Shown: positions 6,002-37,660 of the stretch, in pieces
Position numbering within the stretch: position 1 is the first letter of the stretch
Layout: every line of letters starts with the position of its first letter
IMG/VR virus record: IMGVR_UViG_3300038443_000672
Length of the DNA stretch: 41,929 bases
Source: a virus
Reading direction: 5' to 3' (one strand)
The notes under the pieces: generated by a model
Databases searched by the model: none
Seen by the model: only the letters and a program-made list of their open reading frames with translations
Told to the model about the DNA's origin: nothing
Translations under genes and position numbers: made by a program

Positions 6002-6295
6002 TCAGGACGGCGGACGGCGGCAAGCAACCAACATCGAGCGTTTCATGACGGGGCCGGTGAAGAAGTTGCCGCCGCTTGCGGCTGCCGTCCGGCCGTTCTC
6101 GGAACCACCGGCGAGCACATCGTAGCCGTCGCCCTTACAAATATCGCCTGCCTTTTCGTAACAGGCGCCCCAACTCATAGCCATCCCGGAGCAGTCAATC
6201 GAATATGCGCGCCGGCCATCGGGCGAATAGGTCTCGTGGGACACCGCGCACCCGGCCAGTAAGGTTGCGAACGACAATGCAATTATTCTCTTCAT
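6002..6295 (-). CDS. Lipoprotein (97 aa), candidate superinfection-exclusion/moron gene
   Basis: MKRIIALSFATLLAGC has a lipobox (LLAG|C). The mature part has 4 further Cys. It sits between the repressor gene and PL. Confidence 0.7.
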   Translation of the reverse strand: MKRIIALSFATLLAGCAVSHETYSPDGRRAYSIDCSGMAMSWGACYEKAGDICKGDGYDVLAGGSENGRTAAASGGNFFTGPVMKRSMLVACRRPPS

Positions 6296-6508: not shown

Positions 6509-6982
6509 CTATTTGCTTCCTGCATTTTTTTCCTCTACGGGTCCCTGGCGTTGGCGGGGCACCAGTTCCATTACCTCTCGCTCGGCAAGGTCAAGTAAAT
6601 CGTGCTCCGCTTTTGCATCTTCTACATGGTGCTCAGGGAAGGATAGTAGGAATAAACCCGCATGTAAGACGAAAGACTTGCGCGCGCGGGCGCCAAGCCC
6701 GTCCAGGCGTTCTATGCATTCGATTAAAACGCTCGCCTCTGGGGACAGTGAGGGTTTATCCCTACCCTTCGGCTCTCCGTCGCCCATGACCAGCCATGCT
6801 GTTCGATATCCAAGTTCCTTTTCGATGCATGTGGCGTAGCTCATTTTCATCGACTTTATTTTTCCGTCCAACCACTGGTTGACGGTGCCCTTCGTTACGC
6901 CAGCAATCCTCCCGAGCGCCGCCTGATCTAGTTCAGGGTGCTCTGAAAATATCCGCTGGACGCGCTCGCTGAGTGTCTTCAT
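6509..6982 (-). CDS. cI-like repressor (XRE-family HTH), no S24 peptidase domain
   Basis: HTH LDQAALGRIAGVTKGTVNQWLDG. It is divergent from the cro-like gene. The C-terminal 80 aa lack Ser/Lys autocleavage motifs. Confidence 0.75.
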   Translation of the reverse strand: MKTLSERVQRIFSEHPELDQAALGRIAGVTKGTVNQWLDGKIKSMKMSYATCIEKELGYRTAWLVMGDGEPKGRDKPSLSPEASVLIECIERLDGLGARARKSFVLHAGLFLLSFPEHHVEDAKAEHDLLDLAEREVMELVPRQRQGPVEEKNAGSK

Positions 6983-15282: not shown

Positions 15283-16776
15283 ATGGATTCGCGGATCAAC
15301 CTCGAAGACTGGAAGAACCCGGTCTGGAGGTTGCACAACCTTTACTGGATCACCGACAAAACGGGCGCCGTCGTCAAGTTCACGCCCAACGCGGAGCAGC
15401 GATCGTTTCTGGAAGCGCTACATTATCGCAACGTCATCCTCAAGGCTCGGCAACTCGGCTTCTCGACACTCATCCAGCTTATTTTCCTGGACGCCGCCGT
15501 GTTCAACTCAAACGTGCGCGCGGGCGTCATCGCCGATTCGCTCGACAACGTGACGGTGATCTTTCGCGATAAGATCAAGTTCGCCTATGACCGGCTGCCA
15601 GAAGGCATTCGCGCCGAGCGACACCCGGTGCAGGACAGCACGAGCGAATTGCTGCTTTCGAACAACTCGAGCGTGCGCGTAGGCACGTCGATGCGCTCCG
15701 GGACGCTGCAATACCTGCACGTGTCCGAGTTCGGGAAGATTTGCGCTAAGCACCCGGAGAAAGCTCGCGAAATCGTGACCGGCGCAATCCCGGCCGTGGC
15801 GCCCGACGGGTTCCTGTTCGTCGAATCGACGGCAGAGGGTCGCGAAGGGCCGTTCTACGACATGGTGGAGCGCGCCCGCAAGCGCATCGGACAGCACCAT
15901 TTGCCGGTCGAGGAACGCTTCCACTTCTTTCCCTGGTATGGGCGCCCCGAATATGAAGCAGATCCGCGCGCCGTCGTCATCTCGGCCAAGGATCACGAAT
16001 ATTTCGATGAGATTCAGCGCAAGGCCGGGTGCGTGCTCAACGAGCGCAAGCGAGCCTGGTACGTGCTCACGCGCGCCGTAATGCGCGAGGACATGAAGCG
16101 CGAATTCCCGAGCACGGCCGATGAGGCGTTCGAATCGTCGAATGAGGGTGCATGGTTCCGCGAGCAATTCGATTTGCTGCGCCGCGATAAGCGTATCTGC
16201 CGAGTGCCGTACGAACGGTCGGTGCCGGTTAACACGTTTTGGGACTTGGGCGCGAACGACACGACAGCCATCTGGTTTCATCAGATCGTGGGCCCCGAGC
16301 ATCGCTTCCTGCGCTTTTACGAGGCCAACGGCCGCACGCTCGACCACTTCGTCACCTATCTGCGCGACACCGGCTACATGTTCGGCGCGCATTACCTGCC
16401 GCATGACGGCGATCACAAGCGCCTGAGCACCGGTTTTCAGAACCGGTCCGTGAAGGAAATGCTGCAAGACCTCGGGGTGCGCGACATCGAGATTGTGCCG
16501 CGCATCGACAACGTGACGGTCGGCATCAATCAAACGCGCTCGGCGCTATCCAGCGCCTTCTTCGACGCCGAACTCTGCAAGGAAGGGCTAGACCACCTCG
16601 AGAAGTATTCGAAGGAGTGGGACGCCAACCGTGGCATGTGGAAAGACCACCCGAAGCACGACATTCACTCGAACGCGGCCGACGCGCTGCGCCAGTGGGG
16701 GCAGAAGCAGAAGAACCTCACGAGCGGCCCGCAGTGGGGCGCCTCCATCAACTACGGAAAACTGGCGATCGCATGA
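15283..16776 (+). CDS. terL: Terminase large subunit
   Basis: 497 aa. Walker-A-like ILKARQLGFST, SEFGK, and a C-terminal nuclease region (WDLGANDTTAIWF). Confidence 0.85.
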   Translation: MDSRINLEDWKNPVWRLHNLYWITDKTGAVVKFTPNAEQRSFLEALHYRNVILKARQLGFSTLIQLIFLDAAVFNSNVRAGVIADSLDNVTVIFRDKIKFAYDRLPEGIRAERHPVQDSTSELLLSNNSSVRVGTSMRSGTLQYLHVSEFGKICAKHPEKAREIVTGAIPAVAPDGFLFVESTAEGREGPFYDMVERARKRIGQHHLPVEERFHFFPWYGRPEYEADPRAVVISAKDHEYFDEIQRKAGCVLNERKRAWYVLTRAVMREDMKREFPSTADEAFESSNEGAWFREQFDLLRRDKRICRVPYERSVPVNTFWDLGANDTTAIWFHQIVGPEHRFLRFYEANGRTLDHFVTYLRDTGYMFGAHYLPHDGDHKRLSTGFQNRSVKEMLQDLGVRDIEIVPRIDNVTVGINQTRSALSSAFFDAELCKEGLDHLEKYSKEWDANRGMWKDHPKHDIHSNAADALRQWGQKQKNLTSGPQWGASINYGKLAIA

Positions 16777-31817: not shown

Positions 31818-32927
31818 ATGACACTCGCGCAATGGTCAACGGTGGCCGCGAATAACGCGACGGCCGATCCCTCCATCAACTGGCAGGAAGGGCAGGCGCC
31901 GAGCACGGTCAACGACTCCGCGCGCGCGATGATGGCAGCTATCGCGACGTGGTATCAGGCCCCGGAATGGCTCAATCTGGGCGACACGCCGACGTACGCC
32001 AGCGCCACGCAATTCACGGTGCCAACCAACCGCACGAGCGCCTATACGGTTGGCCGCCGCATGCGCGCGAAGGTCACGGCGGGCACGATCTACGGCACGA
32101 TTACGGAGTCGGCGTTCGCCTCGGTCACGACCGTTACCGTTCAGTGGGATGCTGGCTCGCTAGACGGCGGGTTGTCCGAAGTCGATGTCGGGATTTCCAA
32201 TCCTGCTTATCCTTCAATCACGAACCTCGGCGCCCTGACTGTTTCGTCGCTCCAAGCCGATTCGCAGATCGTTCTCGCGCAATTGGCTTCACCCAATATC
32301 GCGCCGATCAAATTCGGCGACGGCTCGGGATGGAAGCTTAATTTCGAAACCCTTAACGGATCGTCCGTATTCGCAACGCTCCAGGACTCGGGAAACTTTG
32401 CGATATCTGGCACGTTCACGGGCGCCGACATTGCGATCAACGGGGGAGCCGTTTCAACTCCGGCCACCATTTCGACGACGACAGGCTCTGCGTATCAAAA
32501 GTTTTCAGGGAGCGGGGGCGCCAAGTATGTTGGAGTAGGCGCCAATGATTTCATCGTGCTCAATTCGTCCGGCAATACGGTTTTGCTGCAACTCGACGAA
32601 TCAGGCAACGAAACGATCCCGGGAACGTTGACCGCCGGCAACCTCACCGCATCCTCCGACGAGCGCTACAAGCGCGATTGGAGCCCGGTAAGCGGTGACT
32701 TCGTGGATCAACTCGCGGGACTCCTGAGCGGCACGTATGAGGACGTTGCCAGCGGCGAGCGACGCGTCGGTGTCGGCGCGCAGTCGTTGCAGCGCTTTTT
32801 GCCGGAAGCCGTCGTCGAGGTCAACGAGCGGTTGACCGTGGCCTATGGGCACGCGGCCCTTGTCGCGTGCGTCGAACTCGCCAAAGAGGTTCGGCGCCTG
32901 CGCGCGCTCTTGGAGACCGTGAAATGA
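31818..32927 (+). CDS. Tail fibre with a C-terminal S74 intramolecular chaperone domain
   Basis: The N-terminal WSTVAANNATADPSINWQEGQAPSTVNDSARAMMA motif is common in fibre N-termini. SSDERYKRDW...VGVGAQSL at the C-terminus. Confidence 0.75.
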   Translation: MTLAQWSTVAANNATADPSINWQEGQAPSTVNDSARAMMAAIATWYQAPEWLNLGDTPTYASATQFTVPTNRTSAYTVGRRMRAKVTAGTIYGTITESAFASVTTVTVQWDAGSLDGGLSEVDVGISNPAYPSITNLGALTVSSLQADSQIVLAQLASPNIAPIKFGDGSGWKLNFETLNGSSVFATLQDSGNFAISGTFTGADIAINGGAVSTPATISTTTGSAYQKFSGSGGAKYVGVGANDFIVLNSSGNTVLLQLDESGNETIPGTLTAGNLTASSDERYKRDWSPVSGDFVDQLAGLLSGTYEDVASGERRVGVGAQSLQRFLPEAVVEVNERLTVAYGHAALVACVELAKEVRRLRALLETVK

Positions 32928-33367
32928 CGCTCCCCGCCGGGTATCCCGTCACAGCGCTTGAAATTGCCAACGAACTGAGCCTGAGTTTCCCCCTGTCGCT
33001 CAATCATCCATGGGTCATCGCGCTTGCGGGCAAATCCGGCTTGCCGGTCAGCTTTTCGGACCTGCTCGGCAAGTCCGGTCACTTCGGGGGGAATGTAACA
33101 GGCAACGGCAGCGGCACGCTTCTTTCCGTCACGTTCGGAAACGCGCCGTTTTTTGGGGGCGCCCTTAGCTCGCTGACTCAGCAATTCAATTCGCTCACGC
33201 TTTCGTTTTCGTCGGCTCCAAATTGGAACGGCAACATTTTAGTTTCCGCGCCGGCCGGGAGCGCTGTATTGACCAAGGCCAACAGCACTACTTGGACAGG
33301 AACAACCGCCAGCGGCATCCTGCCCGCCAATGGGCAAGTCGTCTATATGACGCTTTATCCGAACTAA
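32924..33367 (+). CDS. Fibre-associated hypothetical protein (147 aa)
   Basis: ATGA overlap with the fibre gene. Confidence 0.55.
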   Translation: MTLPAGYPVTALEIANELSLSFPLSLNHPWVIALAGKSGLPVSFSDLLGKSGHFGGNVTGNGSGTLLSVTFGNAPFFGGALSSLTQQFNSLTLSFSSAPNWNGNILVSAPAGSAVLTKANSTTWTGTTASGILPANGQVVYMTLYPN

Positions 33368-33384
33368 GAAAGGGGTGAACAAAA

Positions 33385-33690
33385 ATGGATGCTGACATCG
33401 AGCGCATCAAGGAACGCCTGGACGGTCACGACGACGATATTGCGCGGCACGATGAAGCGATCCGGCGGCACGACGAGCTTATCGCGGGCCTGCGCGAAGC
33501 CGTTGCCACGGTCGCGACAAAAGACGACGTTCACGCGCTCAGTTCGGCTATCAGCGAGACGCATGCGAAGCAGATGGCCGACGCGCTCAATTCGGTGCCC
33601 GGCAAGATCGCGCTCTTTTTCACCGGCGGCGGATTCATCGTGGCGCTCGTGGCGCTCGTTCTCGATTGGGCTACGCGCAGCCATGGATGA
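33385..33690 (+). CDS. Tail-anchored coiled-coil membrane protein (XhlA-like architecture)
   Basis: N-terminal IKERLDGHDDDIARHDEAIRRHDELI heptads with a single C-terminal TM (IALFFTGGGFIVALVALVL). Confidence 0.45.
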   Translation: MDADIERIKERLDGHDDDIARHDEAIRRHDELIAGLREAVATVATKDDVHALSSAISETHAKQMADALNSVPGKIALFFTGGGFIVALVALVLDWATRSHG

Positions 33691-33880
33691 TGAAACGATC
33701 GAAGGGCGCTTTGCGCTCGTCGATGACCGTCTCGATCATTTCGGCGAGCGGATCGACGCGATCGAGGATGGGCGCGAAGCGAAGCACGCGCGCGTCATCA
33801 ATTGGGCGATGCTCCTTCTGTTCGTGGCCGAGGTCGCAATTGGCGTCGCGGAATTTTGGTGGATGGTGCGCCATGCTTAG
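33683..33880 (+). CDS. Second tail-anchored coiled-coil membrane protein (65 aa)
   Basis: VDDRLDHFGERIDAIEDG plus a C-terminal TM (WAMLLLFVAEVAIGVAEFWWM). It overlaps both neighbours. Confidence 0.45.
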   Translation: MDDETIEGRFALVDDRLDHFGERIDAIEDGREAKHARVINWAMLLLFVAEVAIGVAEFWWMVRHA

Positions 33881-34214
33881 ACGCATCTATCTCAAGTTCC
33901 GCGACGAGGAAACGTTCCTCCGCGCTCTCTGCGTGTTCGTCGTGACGATGCTCACCCTCCATTTTGCGCGCGGGGCAGATAGCGATTGGGGCGGCACGAA
34001 CTTGACGCTATCGATCGAAGCGGCCATTGCAAGCGCCGTCATTATGAAAGAGCAGAAGCGCCAGGGCGAAGTCCAGCAGAAGCAAATGCTGGCGCTCCTT
34101 ACCCTCGCCGAGACGCAGCGCGACATGCTGGTTGACCACGCGGCGCTCCTTCGCGTGCTGCGTGACGGCGACGCCAGGATTCTGGAAACACTCACCACAC
34201 TCAAGGAGGAATGA
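33873..34214 (+). CDS. Membrane protein with a C-terminal coiled coil (holin or i-spanin candidate)
   Basis: Hydrophobic segments LRALCVFVVTMLTLHF and LTLSIEAAIASAVIM, then a helical Gln/Leu-rich tail. Confidence 0.4.
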   Translation: MLRRIYLKFRDEETFLRALCVFVVTMLTLHFARGADSDWGGTNLTLSIEAAIASAVIMKEQKRQGEVQQKQMLALLTLAETQRDMLVDHAALLRVLRDGDARILETLTTLKEE

Positions 34215-34216
34215 CG

Positions 34217-34705
34217 ATGCAAGCATGGCTCGAAAAGGCGATCGCTCTCGCCAAACAGTACGAGGGTTGCTGCCTGGAAGCGTATGCCGATCCCGTCTAC
34301 GGCTGGCGCCGCGCGACCGTGGGCTATGGGGCGACTGGCCCCTCGATCATCGAGGGGACCGTGTGGACGCAGGAACAGGCCGACGCCGACCTCCTGTACC
34401 GCATGGAAGGCATCGGCAACCACATCGACGTGCTAGTCACGGTGCCGATCAGCGACGAGCAAAAGGCGGCGCTGTGCGACCTCGCCTACAACATCGGCCT
34501 TGGCGCGCTCGCGCACTCGATGCTGCTCGCCTGCGTGAACGCGAACCACATGCAGGGCGCCGCCGATCAATTCCTGGCCTGGACTCATGCCGGCGGCGTT
34601 CAATTGCGCGGCCTGGTGGATCGACGCGCCGCCGAACGCGCGCTTTTCATGCTCGGGGCCAACCTATTGGGGGAGCCTCAGCAACAAGCGGAGGTGCAAT
34701 CGTGA
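34217..34705 (+). CDS. Endolysin, GH24 (T4-lysozyme-like) muramidase
   Basis: LAKQYEGCCLEAYADP...ATVGYG catalytic Glu/Asp/Thr pattern. AAGGAGGA lies 7 nt upstream of the ATG at 34217 (alternative ATG 34211). Confidence 0.85.
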   Translation: MQAWLEKAIALAKQYEGCCLEAYADPVYGWRRATVGYGATGPSIIEGTVWTQEQADADLLYRMEGIGNHIDVLVTVPISDEQKAALCDLAYNIGLGALAHSMLLACVNANHMQGAADQFLAWTHAGGVQLRGLVDRRAAERALFMLGANLLGEPQQQAEVQS

Positions 34706-34947
34706 ATCAAAGTTCTCCGGTCACCACCGGGGCCGCAGCCGTGAGCGGGGCGATGATCGGCGGCGTCATTGTGTGGGCGTGCGGAGCGCTCAAGATCGCC
34801 GCGCCCCCGGCAGATGTAGCCGGCACCATGGGCGCGCTCGTGCTTGCCGGCCTACACGTCGTGTGCAACGCCATCGCAAACCGCTCGAGCAAGCCCGCTC
34901 AGCCGCCCGCAGCCGCCCCGGCTCCCGCAGCACCCACCCAGCAGTAA
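34702..34947 (+). CDS. Two-TM small membrane protein with a Pro/Ala tail (holin-like)
   Basis: GTGA overlap with the endolysin. TMs are AAAVSGAMIGGVIVWACGAL and GTMGALVLAGLHVVCNAI. Confidence 0.45.
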   Translation: MNQSSPVTTGAAAVSGAMIGGVIVWACGALKIAAPPADVAGTMGALVLAGLHVVCNAIANRSSKPAQPPAAAPAPAAPTQQ

Positions 34948-34970
34948 CCACTCTCCCGAGGAATCTCACC

Positions 34971-35327
34971 ATGAAGATGCTGCTCATTGCGGCAGGGTTG
35001 TCCCTGGCCGCTCTTTCCGCTTGCTCGACGACGCAACAGGACAATCTGAACGCGTCACTAGCCAACCTGAACAAGACGAATCTGCTCGCGCTACAGGCGA
35101 TCAAGAATGGGTGCTCGGTCGTGCAGCCCACGCTCATCGCGGCCGGCGCAGCAAGCCCGCAAGTGGCCGCTGCTGCGGCTGCAAACGGCGTCGTGTGCGC
35201 AACGGCCAATGTCGCCGCTGATGCGGCGGCGCAGGCGGTCGCGGCGCAGGCAGCCAGCGCACCGGCCGTTCCTGCCGCGACACCCGCAGCGGCCACGCCG
35301 GCCACGAGCGCGGCGCCGGCAAAATGA
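34971..35327 (+). CDS. Lipoprotein (118 aa, Ala/Pro-rich), o-spanin-like position
   Basis: MKMLLIAAGLSLAALSAC lipobox with a GAGGAA RBS. There is no C-terminal TM. Confidence 0.65.
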   Translation: MKMLLIAAGLSLAALSACSTTQQDNLNASLANLNKTNLLALQAIKNGCSVVQPTLIAAGAASPQVAAAAAANGVVCATANVAADAAAQAVAAQAASAPAVPAATPAAATPATSAAPAK

Positions 35328-35938
35328 CACCGCTCAGTGCGCACGACTACGCTTTGATCGCGCAAGAGGCGTACACAGCGGCGCCGGATATTGGCGTCGA
35401 AAGCAGCGCCTCGCGCGCGATCGTGCGTGACACACCCGGGGGGCTCGTCGTGGCCTTCCCGGGCACTGACAACGCCGCGTGCTTCATTGCGGATATGGAC
35501 GCCATACCAATGGCGGTACCGGGCGTCGGAGAGGTGCACAGGGGCTTCTGGCTGGCTTGGCAGACAATCTCGGTGCCGGTGCTCGCCGCCGTCAACGGAC
35601 GCCCCGTGACGTTCGTTGGGCACTCGCTGGGCGCTGCTATTGCGATCATGGCGGCCGTCGAGTCGCAGCTATCGGGCATTCCGCCCGCTTCAATCTATGG
35701 CTTTGGACCGCCGCGCGTCGCGCCGTCGTGCGCCGTGCGCGCGCTGCTCGCGCCGGTTCCGACGCGGCTATTTCGGAACGGCAACGACCTAGTGCCGAAC
35801 GTGCCGCTCGCGTGGAAGCATGCCGGTGTGCTCGAGCAGATCGGCACCCAACTCTATCCCTTCCCGAACGTCGAAGATCATCGGATGGCGCGCTATGTCG
35901 CAGCCGCGCCCACCAGTTCGGCCTTAACGATAGCCTAG
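35324..35938 (+). CDS. Class-3 lipase family alpha/beta hydrolase
   Basis: VVAFPGTDN, GEVHRGF, FVGHSLGAA nucleophile elbow, FGPPRV, NGNDLVPNVP and EDHRM. ATGA overlap with the lipoprotein gene. Confidence 0.8.
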   Translation: MTPLSAHDYALIAQEAYTAAPDIGVESSASRAIVRDTPGGLVVAFPGTDNAACFIADMDAIPMAVPGVGEVHRGFWLAWQTISVPVLAAVNGRPVTFVGHSLGAAIAIMAAVESQLSGIPPASIYGFGPPRVAPSCAVRALLAPVPTRLFRNGNDLVPNVPLAWKHAGVLEQIGTQLYPFPNVEDHRMARYVAAAPTSSALTIA

Positions 35939-36411
35939 AACGCGATCCTGCCGAAGATCGCCACGCAGTTGTACCCTTCCTTCGCCGCCGGCGGAATGTA
36001 CGTCGCCTCGATCGACAGGCGTTTGTAGGTCACGCCGATGCTCGGCAATGCCCCCGGGCCATGGTGCCCGCTCCCGTTCAAATACCCCGCGCGCACGGTC
36101 GCGAAGACCGCGACATTGCTCGATACCGGCACCGTGAACTGATAGCCGCCGTAGACGGTATAGGCCTGCTGCCGAAACGTGTCGCGGTAGGTCAATCCGC
36201 CGACGAGCCATTGTCCGTGCCATGCGTTGCCCCGGTATTCAAGGCCCCCGCCCCAATTGTATTGATTCACGTCATAGCCGCGCCGGCCGGGCGCCAGTTG
36301 ATGGCCGAAATGCCACGACTTGCCCATGAGCAATAGGTCGGTTTCGGCGTGCGCGGGGAGGGTGACAGCGAGAATCGCGGCGGCCGAGAGCAGTGCGCGA
36401 AAGAGGTGCAA
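35935..36411 (-). CDS. PagP-like outer-membrane beta-barrel protein (lipid A palmitoyltransferase family candidate)
   Basis: TTG start. Signal peptide MHLFRALLSAAAILAVTLPAHA|E. KSWHF, NWGGGLEY, GNAWHG, YRDT, TYIP and the terminal RIAF align in order with E. coli PagP TWHARF, PWGGGFG, GNWHG, FKDS, TYIPG and RFQF (from memory). Confidence 0.5.
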   Translation of the reverse strand: MHLFRALLSAAAILAVTLPAHAETDLLLMGKSWHFGHQLAPGRRGYDVNQYNWGGGLEYRGNAWHGQWLVGGLTYRDTFRQQAYTVYGGYQFTVPVSSNVAVFATVRAGYLNGSGHHGPGALPSIGVTYKRLSIEATYIPPAAKEGYNCVAIFGRIAF

Positions 36412-36423
36412 GCTAGATGCGCC

Positions 36424-36640
36424 ATTCCCGTTTTGGGAATTTCGACCTGTGTTTACGAACAGGCCTGGAAGCGCGGAGCCTTGTCTGTATTGGGGTGGCT
36501 GATGGGACTCGAACCCACGACAACAGGAATCACAATCCGAGCCGCCAATCCCAGCCAAGCGCGCGTTAGCGCCGAAACGTGGGAATTTTAGTGACGAAAC
36601 AATGCTTGATTCGTAAGCGTTTTTCATAACGGATTCCCAC
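36424..36640. other. attP region
   Basis: tRNA-His-derived core flanked by four (T)GGGAAT/ATTCCC(A) boxes at 36424..36429, 36435..36440, 36581..36586 and 36633..36638, with AT-rich spacers. It is directly downstream of int. Confidence 0.6.
36491..36538 (-). other. 3' 48 nt of a tRNA-His gene (attP core), not an intact tRNA
   Basis: Minus strand reads GGATTGTGATTCCTGTTGTCGTGGGTTCGAGTCCCATCAGCCACCCCA: GTG anticodon loop, T-arm and acceptor 3' end with CCA. No D-arm or 5' acceptor lies upstream. Confidence 0.8.
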
Positions 36641-36643
36641 GGT

Positions 36644-37660
36644 TTACAGTGCCTTGCGGCGAACGATTTTGGTGCGGTCGTAGACGCGCGCCGTTGTCGC
36701 CGGATTGGCGTGCAGATCGGGTAGTGCGCCACGCTGGGCCTTGTATTGCGTGACGTGATAGGCCCGCAGATCGTGGAAAGTGAAGCGCTTGGCGATCACC
36801 TTCTCGGCGAGTGCGCGCGTCATCAGTTTCGCCCACATGGCTTTGAATCCCTCGGGCGTGTAGTGCGTCCCGTACCGATTCGAGAACACGTACAGGCAGT
36901 CGTCCTTGCGCGCCGCGCGCAGCCTTTGCAGCAGTTCGGCAATCGCCGGGGTGATTTCGACATGCTCGATCACCTCGCCGCGCTTCCTGCCGCGCTGCTT
37001 GGCTCGCTTGGTGCGGATGACGCCGGCCGCCTCGTCGATCTGCGGCCATGCCAGATCGATGAATTCTGCCTTCCGGTTGCCCGCCAGGGCCGCGTATTCG
37101 GCCGCCATGCCGATCATGGCGCGCTGCCCACCTAACGCCGCGATCCACGTCGCGAACGCCTTGAAATCGGCCGGATCGGGTGCCTCGGTGCGCGGCTGCT
37201 CCTCGTTGCGCCGGACCTCGCGGCAGGGGTTATGCTTGGCCTCGCCGCGCTCGATCGCAAGGCCGATCAGGTTCGAAAGCAGGGCGATTTCGCGGTTGGC
37301 GCGCACCGGCGCCTCGGCGCGCTCCACGCGCAGGTAGCGGGCCACGTCCGGCGCTTCGATGATCGACGCTCGAGCCGCGCCAAACGCTCGCAGCAGCGGG
37401 CCGGCGCATTGCTCGTAATCCCTGCGCGTGGCGTCGGCGAGACGCTTCCAATAGATCGACGCTTTGTACTGCTCCCATAGGCGCTCGATCGTGCCGATAT
37501 TGTCGCCCTGGCCGGTCAGGTCTAGCACGCGGCGCACGGCCTCGTTCTTGTCGCTGCCCAGCTTGATCGGCTTGCCGCCCACCGGGTGATAGCGGTAGGT
37601 GAAGCCCTTCTTTGTCGGGCGTGCTTCCATGCGCGGAAGCAGGCCATCGCGCGGTTTCAT
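36644..37660 (-). CDS. int: Tyrosine integrase
   Basis: LAGNRKAEF (Arg), FHDLRAYH (H-x-x-R) and TTARVYDR (Tyr). The likely start MKPRDG is in an ATGA overlap with xis. Confidence 0.85.
   Translation of the reverse strand: MKPRDGLLPRMEARPTKKGFTYRYHPVGGKPIKLGSDKNEAVRRVLDLTGQGDNIGTIERLWEQYKASIYWKRLADATRRDYEQCAGPLLRAFGAARASIIEAPDVARYLRVERAEAPVRANREIALLSNLIGLAIERGEAKHNPCREVRRNEEQPRTEAPDPADFKAFATWIAALGGQRAMIGMAAEYAALAGNRKAEFIDLAWPQIDEAAGVIRTKRAKQRGRKRGEVIEHVEITPAIAELLQRLRAARKDDCLYVFSNRYGTHYTPEGFKAMWAKLMTRALAEKVIAKRFTFHDLRAYHVTQYKAQRGALPDLHANPATTARVYDRTKIVRRKAL

Follow-up and report, generated by a model that had tools for sequence, protein, structure and literature searches.

The stretch of DNA analysed here (the window) is the IMG/VR virus record IMGVR_UViG_3300038443_000672, the genome of a temperate phage, 41,929 bp long and to all appearances complete. 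At positions 33385-35938, 3' of the tail fibre gene, it holds seven closely packed genes on the plus strand, here called g1 to g7 (Table 1), all of them present as a lysis cassette in the way that an earlier note on this DNA had proposed. The last three encode a small protein with two hydrophobic segments (g5, TM2), a lipoprotein (g6, LPP) and a class-3 lipase (g7). We describe this trio as a conserved module with an interchangeable lipolytic enzyme and discuss its possible role in the outer-membrane step of host lysis.

The g7 product passes the curated cut-off of the Pfam family PF01764, Lipase_3 (51.6 bits against 22, E 1.2e-13). All the class-3 landmarks that had been read from the sequence beforehand (GHSLG, FGPPRV, NDLVP and DH) are indeed there; the triad residues S101, D155 and H186 are invariant in 61 homologues and are also kept in five distant phage lipases. 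The AlphaFold model, with a predicted local distance difference test score (pLDDT) of 94, displays the alpha/beta-hydrolase fold of the fungal lipase, feruloyl esterase A and phospholipase A1 (PLA1) type. Its best Foldseek matches are fungal feruloyl esterase A, fungal lipases (including that of Rhizomucor) and plant PLA1, at TM-scores of 0.6-0.73 and with E values down to 6.5e-11; 1uwc, 4tgl and 7x0d are among them. As judged from motifs, conservation and predicted fold, g7 is a catalytically intact class-3 lipase and thus a predicted hydrolase of lipid esters. It has no N-terminal signal or extension, as was also claimed earlier: homologues begin at residue 1 with MTPRD(F/Y)ALLAQE, and the relatives retrieved with a family profile from a library of 1.84 billion proteins are mostly 185-215 residues long, most of them aligning from or near the first residue.

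The lipoprotein g6 combines its lipobox with two conserved cysteines (C48 and C76) and an Ala/Pro-rich tail, and it belongs to no Pfam, PHROG or NCBIfam family. The AlphaFold model reaches a pLDDT of only 64; it suggests a helical hairpin in which the two conserved cysteines stand face to face, compatible with a disulfide, followed by a disordered Ala/Pro tail. The lipoprotein stop and the lipase start share the tetranucleotide ATGA. This overlap, together with the recurrence of the coupled pair across loci, bears out the idea of a 118-residue lipoprotein translationally coupled to the lipase. Conservation of the tail (e.g. ...PLAGAPLQ, then stop) is probably due in part to the lipase Shine-Dalgarno sequence embedded in it. 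ARAGORN calls a 95-nt tRNA-Arg(gcg) at 35164-35258 (+), within the Ala-rich g6 coding sequence, which is almost certainly a false positive.

The first gene of the conserved module is g5, separated from g6 by 23 nt that contain the Shine-Dalgarno sequence GAGGA. Alignment of 48 distinct TM2 sequences reveals a first segment that is weakly hydrophobic and rich in Gly, Ala and Thr, with a conserved Trp and often an Asp or Glu, and a second, hydrophobic segment with a conserved (A/G)H..xN, after which comes a short basic tail. TM2 homologues comprise 64-120 residues, at most about 40 of which lie outside the membrane. The layout recalls the pinholins and would suit a holin, a class of small membrane proteins with 1-3 TMDs and a charged C-terminal tail; no family in Pfam, PHROG or NCBIfam matches it. 

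Upstream, g4 is the GH24 endolysin already recognized in the earlier note; its reading frame overlaps that of g3 by ATGA, and a better-spaced start lies at 34217. The g1 product gives a weak match to XhlA (E 0.009, under the Pfam cut-off), and its homologues lie 5' of the endolysin in cassettes of the window's type; g1 is a candidate holin or holin partner. The g2 gene is kept beside g1 and g3 in relatives. The impression that g1 and g2 are paralogues did not hold, for the two have an architecture in common and no detectable sequence similarity (BLASTP E = 2.0). In g3, which shows a weak match to DUF1003 (2.4e-5), the second hydrophobic segment carries a conserved FGxTNLxLSIEA. The earlier note described it as a membrane protein with a coiled-coil tail; given the conserved second segment, g3 is more likely to have two transmembrane domains (TMDs) and a cytoplasmic coiled coil than a single TMD and a periplasmic tail, and is probably of the holin class. 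NCBIfam searches with g1-g7 and their relatives returned no meaningful family. The reading frames of the cassette leave no space for internal promoters. A consensus scan of 32800-36800 found no promoter-like site and no terminator after g7, such scans being weak evidence.

Table 1. Positions of the cassette genes, their functional residues and other features of the window.
Feature	Position	Strand	Description and support
g1	33385-33690	+	101 aa; tail-anchored coiled coil with C-terminal TMD, XhlA-like layout; open reading frame with Shine-Dalgarno sequence
g2	33683-33880	+	65 aa; tail-anchored, C-terminal TMD; 8-nt overlap with g1
g3	33873-34214	+	113-aa membrane protein; two hydrophobic segments, charged coiled-coil C-terminus; 8-nt overlap with g2
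g4	34211-34705	+	GH24 endolysin without signal-anchor-release (SAR) or signal sequence; Pfam Phage_lysozyme 8.5e-34; phrog_7 endolysin 1e-41
g5 (TM2)	34702-34947	+	81 aa; two hydrophobic segments; GTG start; GTGA overlap with g4 stop
g6 (LPP)	34971-35327	+	118-aa lipoprotein precursor; lipobox LSAC
g6 Cys18	35022-35024	+	lipobox cysteine; Ser at +2
g7	35324-35938	+	204-aa signal-less class-3 lipase; Pfam Lipase_3; phrog_21992 esterase/lipase 1e-59
g7 S101	35624-35626	+	catalytic triad (GHSLG)
g7 D155	35786-35788	+	catalytic triad (NGNDLVP)
g7 H186	35879-35881	+	catalytic triad (DH)
Tail fibre	31818-32927	+	S74 chaperone domain; directly precedes the lysis cassette
Terminase	15283-16776	+	in the late operon, with portal, major head protein and ejection proteins
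PagP-like outer-membrane protein gene	35935-36411	-	Pfam PagP 6.7e-7; phrog_3600 7e-20; outside the module
tRNA-His 3' fragment	36488-36542	-	~55 nt; between PagP-like gene and integrase; blastn only
Tyrosine integrase	36644-37660	-	phrog_1 integrase 3.5e-38
Second lipoprotein gene	6002-6295	-	97 aa; lipobox LLAGC, Cys-rich mature part; immediately 3' of the CI-like repressor gene
CI-like repressor gene	6509-6982	-	

Comparison with about 150 related phage loci (numbered with an L below) shows that the arrangement recurs in well over 100 independent loci and hence is not due to chance: TM2-LPP-lipase is a conserved module of Burkholderiaceae and Ralstonia phages. Among cultured phages, the same trio is found in Burkholderia phage BgManors32 (gp44-43-42), in Ralstonia phage Raharianne and its kin (gp56-57-58) and in "Shewanella" phage vB_Sb_QDWS (genes 16-15-14), and current labels of the module genes range from "hypothetical" through "lipase" and "alpha/beta hydrolase" even to "glycerol dehydrogenase". 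A set of 70 loci, from IMG/VR contigs, four bacterial genomes, three cultured phages and the window, was assembled at a lipase identity of at least about 40% to that of the window. In nearly all of them the lipoprotein reading frame terminates at the lipase start (overlap of 4, 1 or 0 nt), and a GH19 or GH24 endolysin lies at most 3 kb upstream in 43/70 and at most 6.5 kb upstream in 49/70. Relatives of the lipase adjoin endolysins of five Pfam families in all (Phage_lysozyme, GH19, GH108, Glucosaminidase and Hydrolase_2), and the module stands behind three sets of holin genes: g1-like, g2-like and g3-like genes with GH24, as in the window (type A); a gp47-like tail-anchored coiled-coil protein with GH19 (type B); and a multi-TMD protein like Raharianne gp53 with GH24 or GH19 (type C). 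The module thus mixes freely with different holins and endolysins and behaves as components of lysis cassettes usually do.

To avoid circularity, loci were also gathered without the lipase as query. A DNA scan with a pattern for the conserved LPP motif C-x-[VI]-V-Q-P-T-L yielded 32 stretches, 31 of which contain LPP, and all 26 loci with enough downstream DNA have a lipolytic gene that starts 4 nt before the LPP stop. The enzyme encoded is Lipase_3 in 13 of these, a divergent Lipase_3 (239 aa, Pfam 9.6e-6) in two, a patatin (Patatin, 2.2e-28) in four and a DUF1353 protein (~3e-29) in seven. Anchoring on the gp47-like protein of BgManors32 led to the same picture, with LPP and a lipolytic gene in 18/18 informative loci (13 Lipase_3, 4 patatin, 1 DUF1353), and anchoring on g3 recovered the module in 24/29. 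At least three unrelated lipolytic folds therefore fill a single slot on a constant TM2-LPP scaffold, a case of non-orthologous displacement. The LPPs that accompany different enzyme families are full-length homologues with 60-84% identity. Three prophage loci, all with GH19, illustrate the exchange at close range: L232 (patatin) and L233 (Lipase_3) are two prophages of one genome (IMG genome 2582580716) whose gp47-like, holin-like proteins each match the BgManors32 query at 99%, and L234 (DUF1353), from another genome, matches it at 98%. Their differing enzymes point to recent exchange within the module. The interchange of enzymes suggests that the property under selection is hydrolysis of lipid acyl esters, most simply those of glycerophospholipids, and the pairing of one LPP type with unrelated enzymes makes a tight and specific LPP-enzyme complex, inhibitory or activating, less likely.

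The module is subject to insertions and substitutions. An HNH endonuclease gene (phrog_8048) repeatedly interrupts the stretch from endolysin to TM2; a DUF6527 gene (~103 aa, CxxC motifs, Pfam 9.3e-14) that overlaps the lipase start lies between lipoprotein and lipase in L025, L034, L046, L215, L244 and L253. Locus L197 (6219-6893) has a TM2 near-identical to g5 and a short LPP, then a 156-aa non-lipase with an FCSELC motif, and a PagP-like gene next; the 156-aa protein has no Pfam and no significant PDB sequence match, its sole match being phrog_1128, labelled "enoyl-CoA hydratase-like". A permuted papain-like fold was considered for it and, for want of confirmation, dropped. The g3-type loci L173, L174, L193 and L195, which have no TM2-LPP-enzyme module and no spanin, carry some 500-1500 nt after the endolysin a ~190-aa phrog_1544 protein with hydrophobic segments in its C-terminal half and a ~80-aa Cys-containing protein (phrog_34710 / phrog_3342), a gene pair that may be another solution to the outer-membrane step. 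GDSL-type esterases occur nearby in two of the cultured phages: the 'minor tail protein' of QDWS (L002 3507-4580) contains a GDSL-lipase domain (5.8e-6), and Raharianne gp51 (L003 3718-4524, -), which bears the annotation of a GDSL-type esterase, is encoded a short way upstream of the holin gene and on the other strand, with an N-terminal region (…LVMVCSGCGGGG…) that by eye resembles a lipoprotein signal. QDWS (L002, OK094664.1) and 'Hujiaoplasma phage zrk29-1' (OP650936.1) are both 47,902 bp long and give identical matches. The genes present (GH19 endolysin, HNH, TM2, LPP, lipase) are those of a Burkholderiales type of phage, and at least one of the two hosts may have been assigned incorrectly, perhaps owing to contamination.

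More distant lipases, at 29-31% identity, were found in low-GC viral contigs of aquatic origin (L075, L077, L079-L081, L083, L084). They belong to a block of seven genes that encode, in order, a 54-60-aa XhlA-like tail-anchored protein, a tail-anchored coiled coil of ~150 aa, a 72-aa protein with N-terminal TMD, a lipoprotein of 63-65 aa whose end overlaps the lipase start, the lipase, a ~110-aa DxDGDG protein with two TMDs and a GH24 endolysin. The lipase gene here stands within the cassette, ahead of the endolysin gene and at a distance from any attachment (att) site. In every clade, it is coupled to the cassette's lipoprotein gene; in L067, L070 and L071 the coupling is directly to a Hydrolase_2 endolysin. 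The ~110-aa aquatic protein (L077 8573-8902; homologues in L072, L075, L079-L084) has an EF-hand-like DxDGDGxxxxxE and two C-terminal TMDs, matches no family and could be a calcium-sensing holin or regulator. Short-type class-3 lipases also exist in cyanophages, namely Prochlorococcus phages P-SSM2 and P-SSM5 (H30-H33) and Cylindrospermopsis phage Cr-LKS4 (L004), in a context without evident lysis genes (a dCTP deaminase gene adjoins in Cr-LKS4), so not every phage class-3 lipase is linked to a lysis cassette.

No canonical spanin is encoded in the window. A lipobox scan of both strands over its whole length returned only g6 and the lipoprotein at 6002-6295(-), with no embedded or overlapping Rz1, and revealed no other spanin candidate. 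Searches of PHROG, Pfam and NCBIfam gave no spanin match for g3, g5 or g6, although the same method finds both Rz and Rz1 in the distant locus L072; the failure of the earlier note to recognize an Rz/Rz1 pair was thus well founded, and no recognizable u-spanin is present either. What g6 has in common with an o-spanin is to be a small lipoprotein, predicted from its lipobox and the Ser at +2 to reside in the outer membrane. An i-spanin has an N-terminal TMD and a long periplasmic coiled coil; TM2, with no long extramembrane domain, is too short outside the membrane to span the periplasm whatever its topology. The role of i-spanin was also considered for g3 and ruled out by the conserved second hydrophobic segment and the DUF1003-like match, g3 moreover lying 5' of the endolysin. 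A u-spanin of the T1 gp11 type was rejected for g6, which ends in a hydrophilic Ala/Pro tail and has no C-terminal TMD.

Based on these findings, which make a strong comparative case, we favour a reading in which the holin gates a lipid hydrolase that works at the outer membrane together with a lipoprotein, LysB-like in function without being of the LysB family, and we put its probability at about 0.5. All seven genes would be co-transcribed late, as their overlapping or 23-nt-spaced reading frames suggest. The lipoprotein would be exported via Sec and Lol and wait in the inner leaflet of the outer membrane, while the lipase, having no export signal, would stay in the cytoplasm with the GH24 endolysin until the holin (g1-g3 and/or g5) opens the inner membrane. 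Once in the periplasm, the lipase could hydrolyse acyl esters of the envelope glycerophospholipids, in the inner leaflet of the outer membrane, and lipase and lipoprotein together would destabilize that membrane and complete lysis, the job done by Rz/Rz1 spanins in other phages. Late expression, holin dependence, phospholipid substrate, outer-membrane target and necessity for lysis are what we infer from the sequence and arrangement of the genes.

Several observations weigh against this proposal. The class-3 fold does not reveal substrate specificity, and the best structural matches of g7 include a feruloyl esterase. A phospholipase in the cytoplasm should endanger the inner membrane before the holin is triggered, and nothing in the sequence explains how it would be restrained. 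The place of the module in Burkholderiaceae prophages, as the final set of late genes ahead of att, is classical for a moron, and a PagP-like moron lies next to it. The association of the same LPP type with unrelated enzymes, which speaks against a specific LPP-enzyme complex, leaves the role of the lipoprotein undefined. Among the g3-type cassettes, 5/29 have neither a recognizable lipolytic gene nor spanins, so neither is obligatory in this backbone. Lastly, the two genes immediately in front of the L072 lipase encode an i-spanin resembling Rz (phrog_739, 1.5e-10) and, overlapping it, an o-spanin resembling Rz1 (phrog_812, 6.2e-13), the end of which overlaps the lipase start. Lipase and canonical spanins can thus coexist and the enzyme need not replace them, and the suggestion that the lipase takes the place of the spanins stands as unproven.

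The constancy of the lipoprotein beside a variable enzyme could also mean that LPP, with or without TM2, is the true outer-membrane disruptor, be it a non-canonical spanin half or a protein similar to colicin lysis proteins, and that the lipase is a dispensable helper which speeds lysis or dissolves membrane debris and vesicles trapping the progeny. The o-spanin position of g6, with its lipobox, cysteines and Pro/Ala tail, agrees with such a role, as does L072, where the lipoprotein before the lipase is the PHROG-confirmed o-spanin itself. We take this for the main rival and regard it as unlikely rather than far-fetched: there is no partner that could serve as i-spanin (TM2 is too short and g3 looks to have two TMDs), g6 without C-terminal TMD is no u-spanin, it matches no spanin PHROG, and the low-confidence model predicts it to be helical and not extended and Pro-rich. 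Additionally, LPP never occurs without a lipolytic gene in the two lipase-independent sets (26/26 and 18/18), which would be unexpected if the enzyme were optional. The gene order before att and int, where g6-g7 is often the last gene set of the predicted prophage and abuts the PagP-like moron, invites the different idea, raised in the earlier note as a phospholipase of lysogenic conversion, that the pair is cargo for virulence, competition or nutrient scavenging, released at lysis without having a part in it. Patatin and phospholipase A2 (PLA2) enzymes are classical virulence factors, after all, and what follows LPP varies, being in some loci a different gene (the DUF6527 insertions, the phrog_1128 protein in L197). 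We nevertheless give this idea little credence, considering that the module is conserved and shows neither apparent room nor a recognizable signal for a promoter of its own, that translational coupling is found in essentially all loci, that the lipolytic gene is not sporadic (26/26, 18/18, 24/29) as the neighbouring PagP-like gene is, that the aquatic contigs hold the lipase in mid-cassette, 5' of the endolysin and far from any att, and that an enzyme without signal peptide could not act from a living lysogen.

Two further explanations assign the enzyme a target or a partner of a different kind, and both seem very remote to us. Adjacent genes for a lipoprotein and a phospholipase resemble the pairs of Tle effector and periplasmic Tli lipoprotein of type VI secretion systems (T6SS), in which case LPP would inhibit the lipase in the periplasm as an immunity protein does; it fits that Tle-type phospholipase effectors are toxic only from the periplasmic side. 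A specific inhibitor is, however, incompatible with homologous LPPs (60-84%) pairing with Lipase_3, divergent Lipase_3, Patatin and DUF1353, inhibition of the enzyme would have no obvious use in a lysis cassette, and no T6SS genes lie nearby. The lipase could otherwise destroy receptors or modify debris, for instance by deacylating lipopolysaccharide or lipoproteins against re-adsorption of progeny, comparable to the Llp lipoprotein of T5. The gene order implies that the enzyme would be late and released with the progeny, a lipoprotein partner is present, and related phages encode SGNH/GDSL esterases in their tail or lysis regions (QDWS gene 18, Raharianne gp51). Set against this scarcely probable function are the exchange with patatin and with DUF1353, the PLA2 family of TtaP (discussed below), which points to a glycerophospholipid and not a specific receptor, and the lack of any link to receptor-binding genes.

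Regarding the favoured lytic role of the lipase with the lipoprotein, partial analogies exist with several known systems, the nearest in mode of action being LysB of mycobacteriophages. LysB is a mycolyl-arabinogalactan esterase whose presumed target is the outer lipid layer, once holin and endolysin have done their part (PMC5707550, PMC6116114). Like g7 it is a lipolytic serine hydrolase encoded beside the endolysin and devoid of an export signal, and the comparison with LysB drawn earlier is apt as a way of working. In terms of descent, g7 represents a different alpha/beta-hydrolase lineage: membership in the cutinase-like LysB family was rejected on the Pfam assignment to Lipase_3 and on the absence of any LysB among the 50 best PDB structural matches, which are fungal and plant class-3 enzymes. 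The substrate must also differ, as the host envelope contains no mycolate, and LysB has no obligatory lipoprotein partner. The likeness to Rz/Rz1 is positional: the module lies downstream of the endolysin, and a small inner-membrane protein gene precedes that of an outer-membrane lipoprotein. Unlike Rz/Rz1, the module has no i-spanin with long coiled coil, no gene pair of the embedded or overlapped architecture and no spanin PHROG, and a third, enzymatic gene is always attached. In colicin release, the colicin lysis proteins (bacteriocin release proteins, BRPs), which are small lipoproteins, permeabilize the outer membrane together with the host phospholipase A OMPLA/PldA and so liberate the cell contents. 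Lipoprotein and phospholipase are again combined, except that here the phage would supply both. The BRPs are much shorter (~30 residues when mature) and use the outer-membrane phospholipase of the host; no sequence relationship between them and the module was found.

Enzymes of the sister cassettes have counterparts elsewhere. TtaP is a DUF1353 protein of Salmonella Typhi, experimentally shown to be a signal-less PLA2, and its gene shares an islet of five genes with that of the phage-type muramidase TtsA (PMC11525133). DUF1353 genes occupy the exact slot of g7 in sister cassettes; the TtaP islet, however, is chromosomal and belongs to the typhoid toxin, not to a phage, and no lipoprotein partner has been described. 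A perturbation of the outer membrane was suggested for TtaP by its authors, who did not find a secretion or lysis phenotype (PMC11525133). For phage WO a 'patatin-based lytic cassette' was hypothesized in which the patatin stands in for the endolysin, in a host without detected peptidoglycan (PMC9203015); the patatin goes together with an ankyrin protein and a holin-like one, not in an arrangement of TM2, lipoprotein and enzyme. The same arrangement is lacking around the GDSL lipase that a Pseudomonas syringae (Psa) siphophage encodes beside holin and endolysin, an SGNH/GDSL hydrolase with a carbohydrate-binding domain; its domain, when fused to an endolysin, aids killing from the outside (PMC12173070). 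The WO and Psa proposals are bioinformatic or in part experimental. The earlier statement that no such enzyme is an established route across the outer membrane requires qualification, in that comparable ideas have been put forward (WO patatin, Psa GDSL lipase, TtaP/TtsA islet), and it remains valid insofar as the WO and Psa proposals are unproven. Our full-text search of the literature retrieved no description of a TM2-lipoprotein-enzyme module or of a class-3 lipase in Gram-negative phage lysis.

The study gains importance from the phages that lack spanins. Apart from one cationic peptide, we know of no described mode by which spanin-less phages break the outer membrane. About 15% of the phages of Gram-negative hosts have no recognizable spanin (bioRxiv 10.1101/515445). 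The module is a concrete and widespread candidate for their outer-membrane step, testable in BgManors32, in Raharianne and in inducible Burkholderia prophages. If the proposal is true, it would explain why unrelated lipolytic enzymes recur beside phage muramidases (TtaP/TtsA; the patatin in WO), it would change how lysis cassettes are annotated, and it would offer natural outer-membrane-breaching partners for endolysin antibacterials against Burkholderia and Ralstonia. A wider generalization, which we put forward tentatively and with more doubt than belief, is that holin-gated phospholipid hydrolysis with a dedicated lipoprotein could be a third general solution to the outer-membrane problem after the spanins and the 'disruptin', a cationic peptide that acts at this step. 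It would be used by whole spanin-less lineages of Burkholderiaceae and Ralstonia phages, with an enzyme exchangeable among at least three unrelated folds (class-3 lipase, patatin, DUF1353 PLA2), and TtsA-TtaP would be the domesticated remnant of such a cassette.

The remainder of the window is consistent with a temperate phage. Its left part carries early and regulatory genes on the minus strand and is followed by the long plus-strand late operon. The PagP-like gene, of the lipid A palmitoyltransferase family, starts with TTG, encodes a signal peptide (MHLFRALLSAAAILAVTLPAHA) and is convergent with the lipase gene, the two stop codons overlapping. It is sporadic, occurring only in a subset of relatives, and likely represents a lysogenic-conversion moron. 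The adjoining tRNA-His 3' fragment is 88-96% identical over ~50 nt to annotated tRNA-His genes and to Burkholderia phage Magia (~96%) in blastn; ARAGORN did not call it and Rfam found nothing in 35900-36700, because it is only a fragment. It is the probable attP core, and phage genes flank it on both sides, so that the window reads as the genome of a phage and not as an integrated prophage with host flanks. The nearest relatives of the lipase lie in Trinickia, Paraburkholderia and Burkholderia genomes, from which the host is most likely a member of the Burkholderiaceae. A profile search of bacterial genome contigs with the lipase alignment retrieved at least four close loci (one in Trinickia, two in Paraburkholderia, one in Rhodanobacter). 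At the DNA level no cultured relative of the whole phage was found, except for a 560-nt match to Ralstonia phage RSK1. The second lipoprotein of the window, next to the repressor gene, has no family match and is a candidate for superinfection exclusion or a moron expressed in the lysogen.

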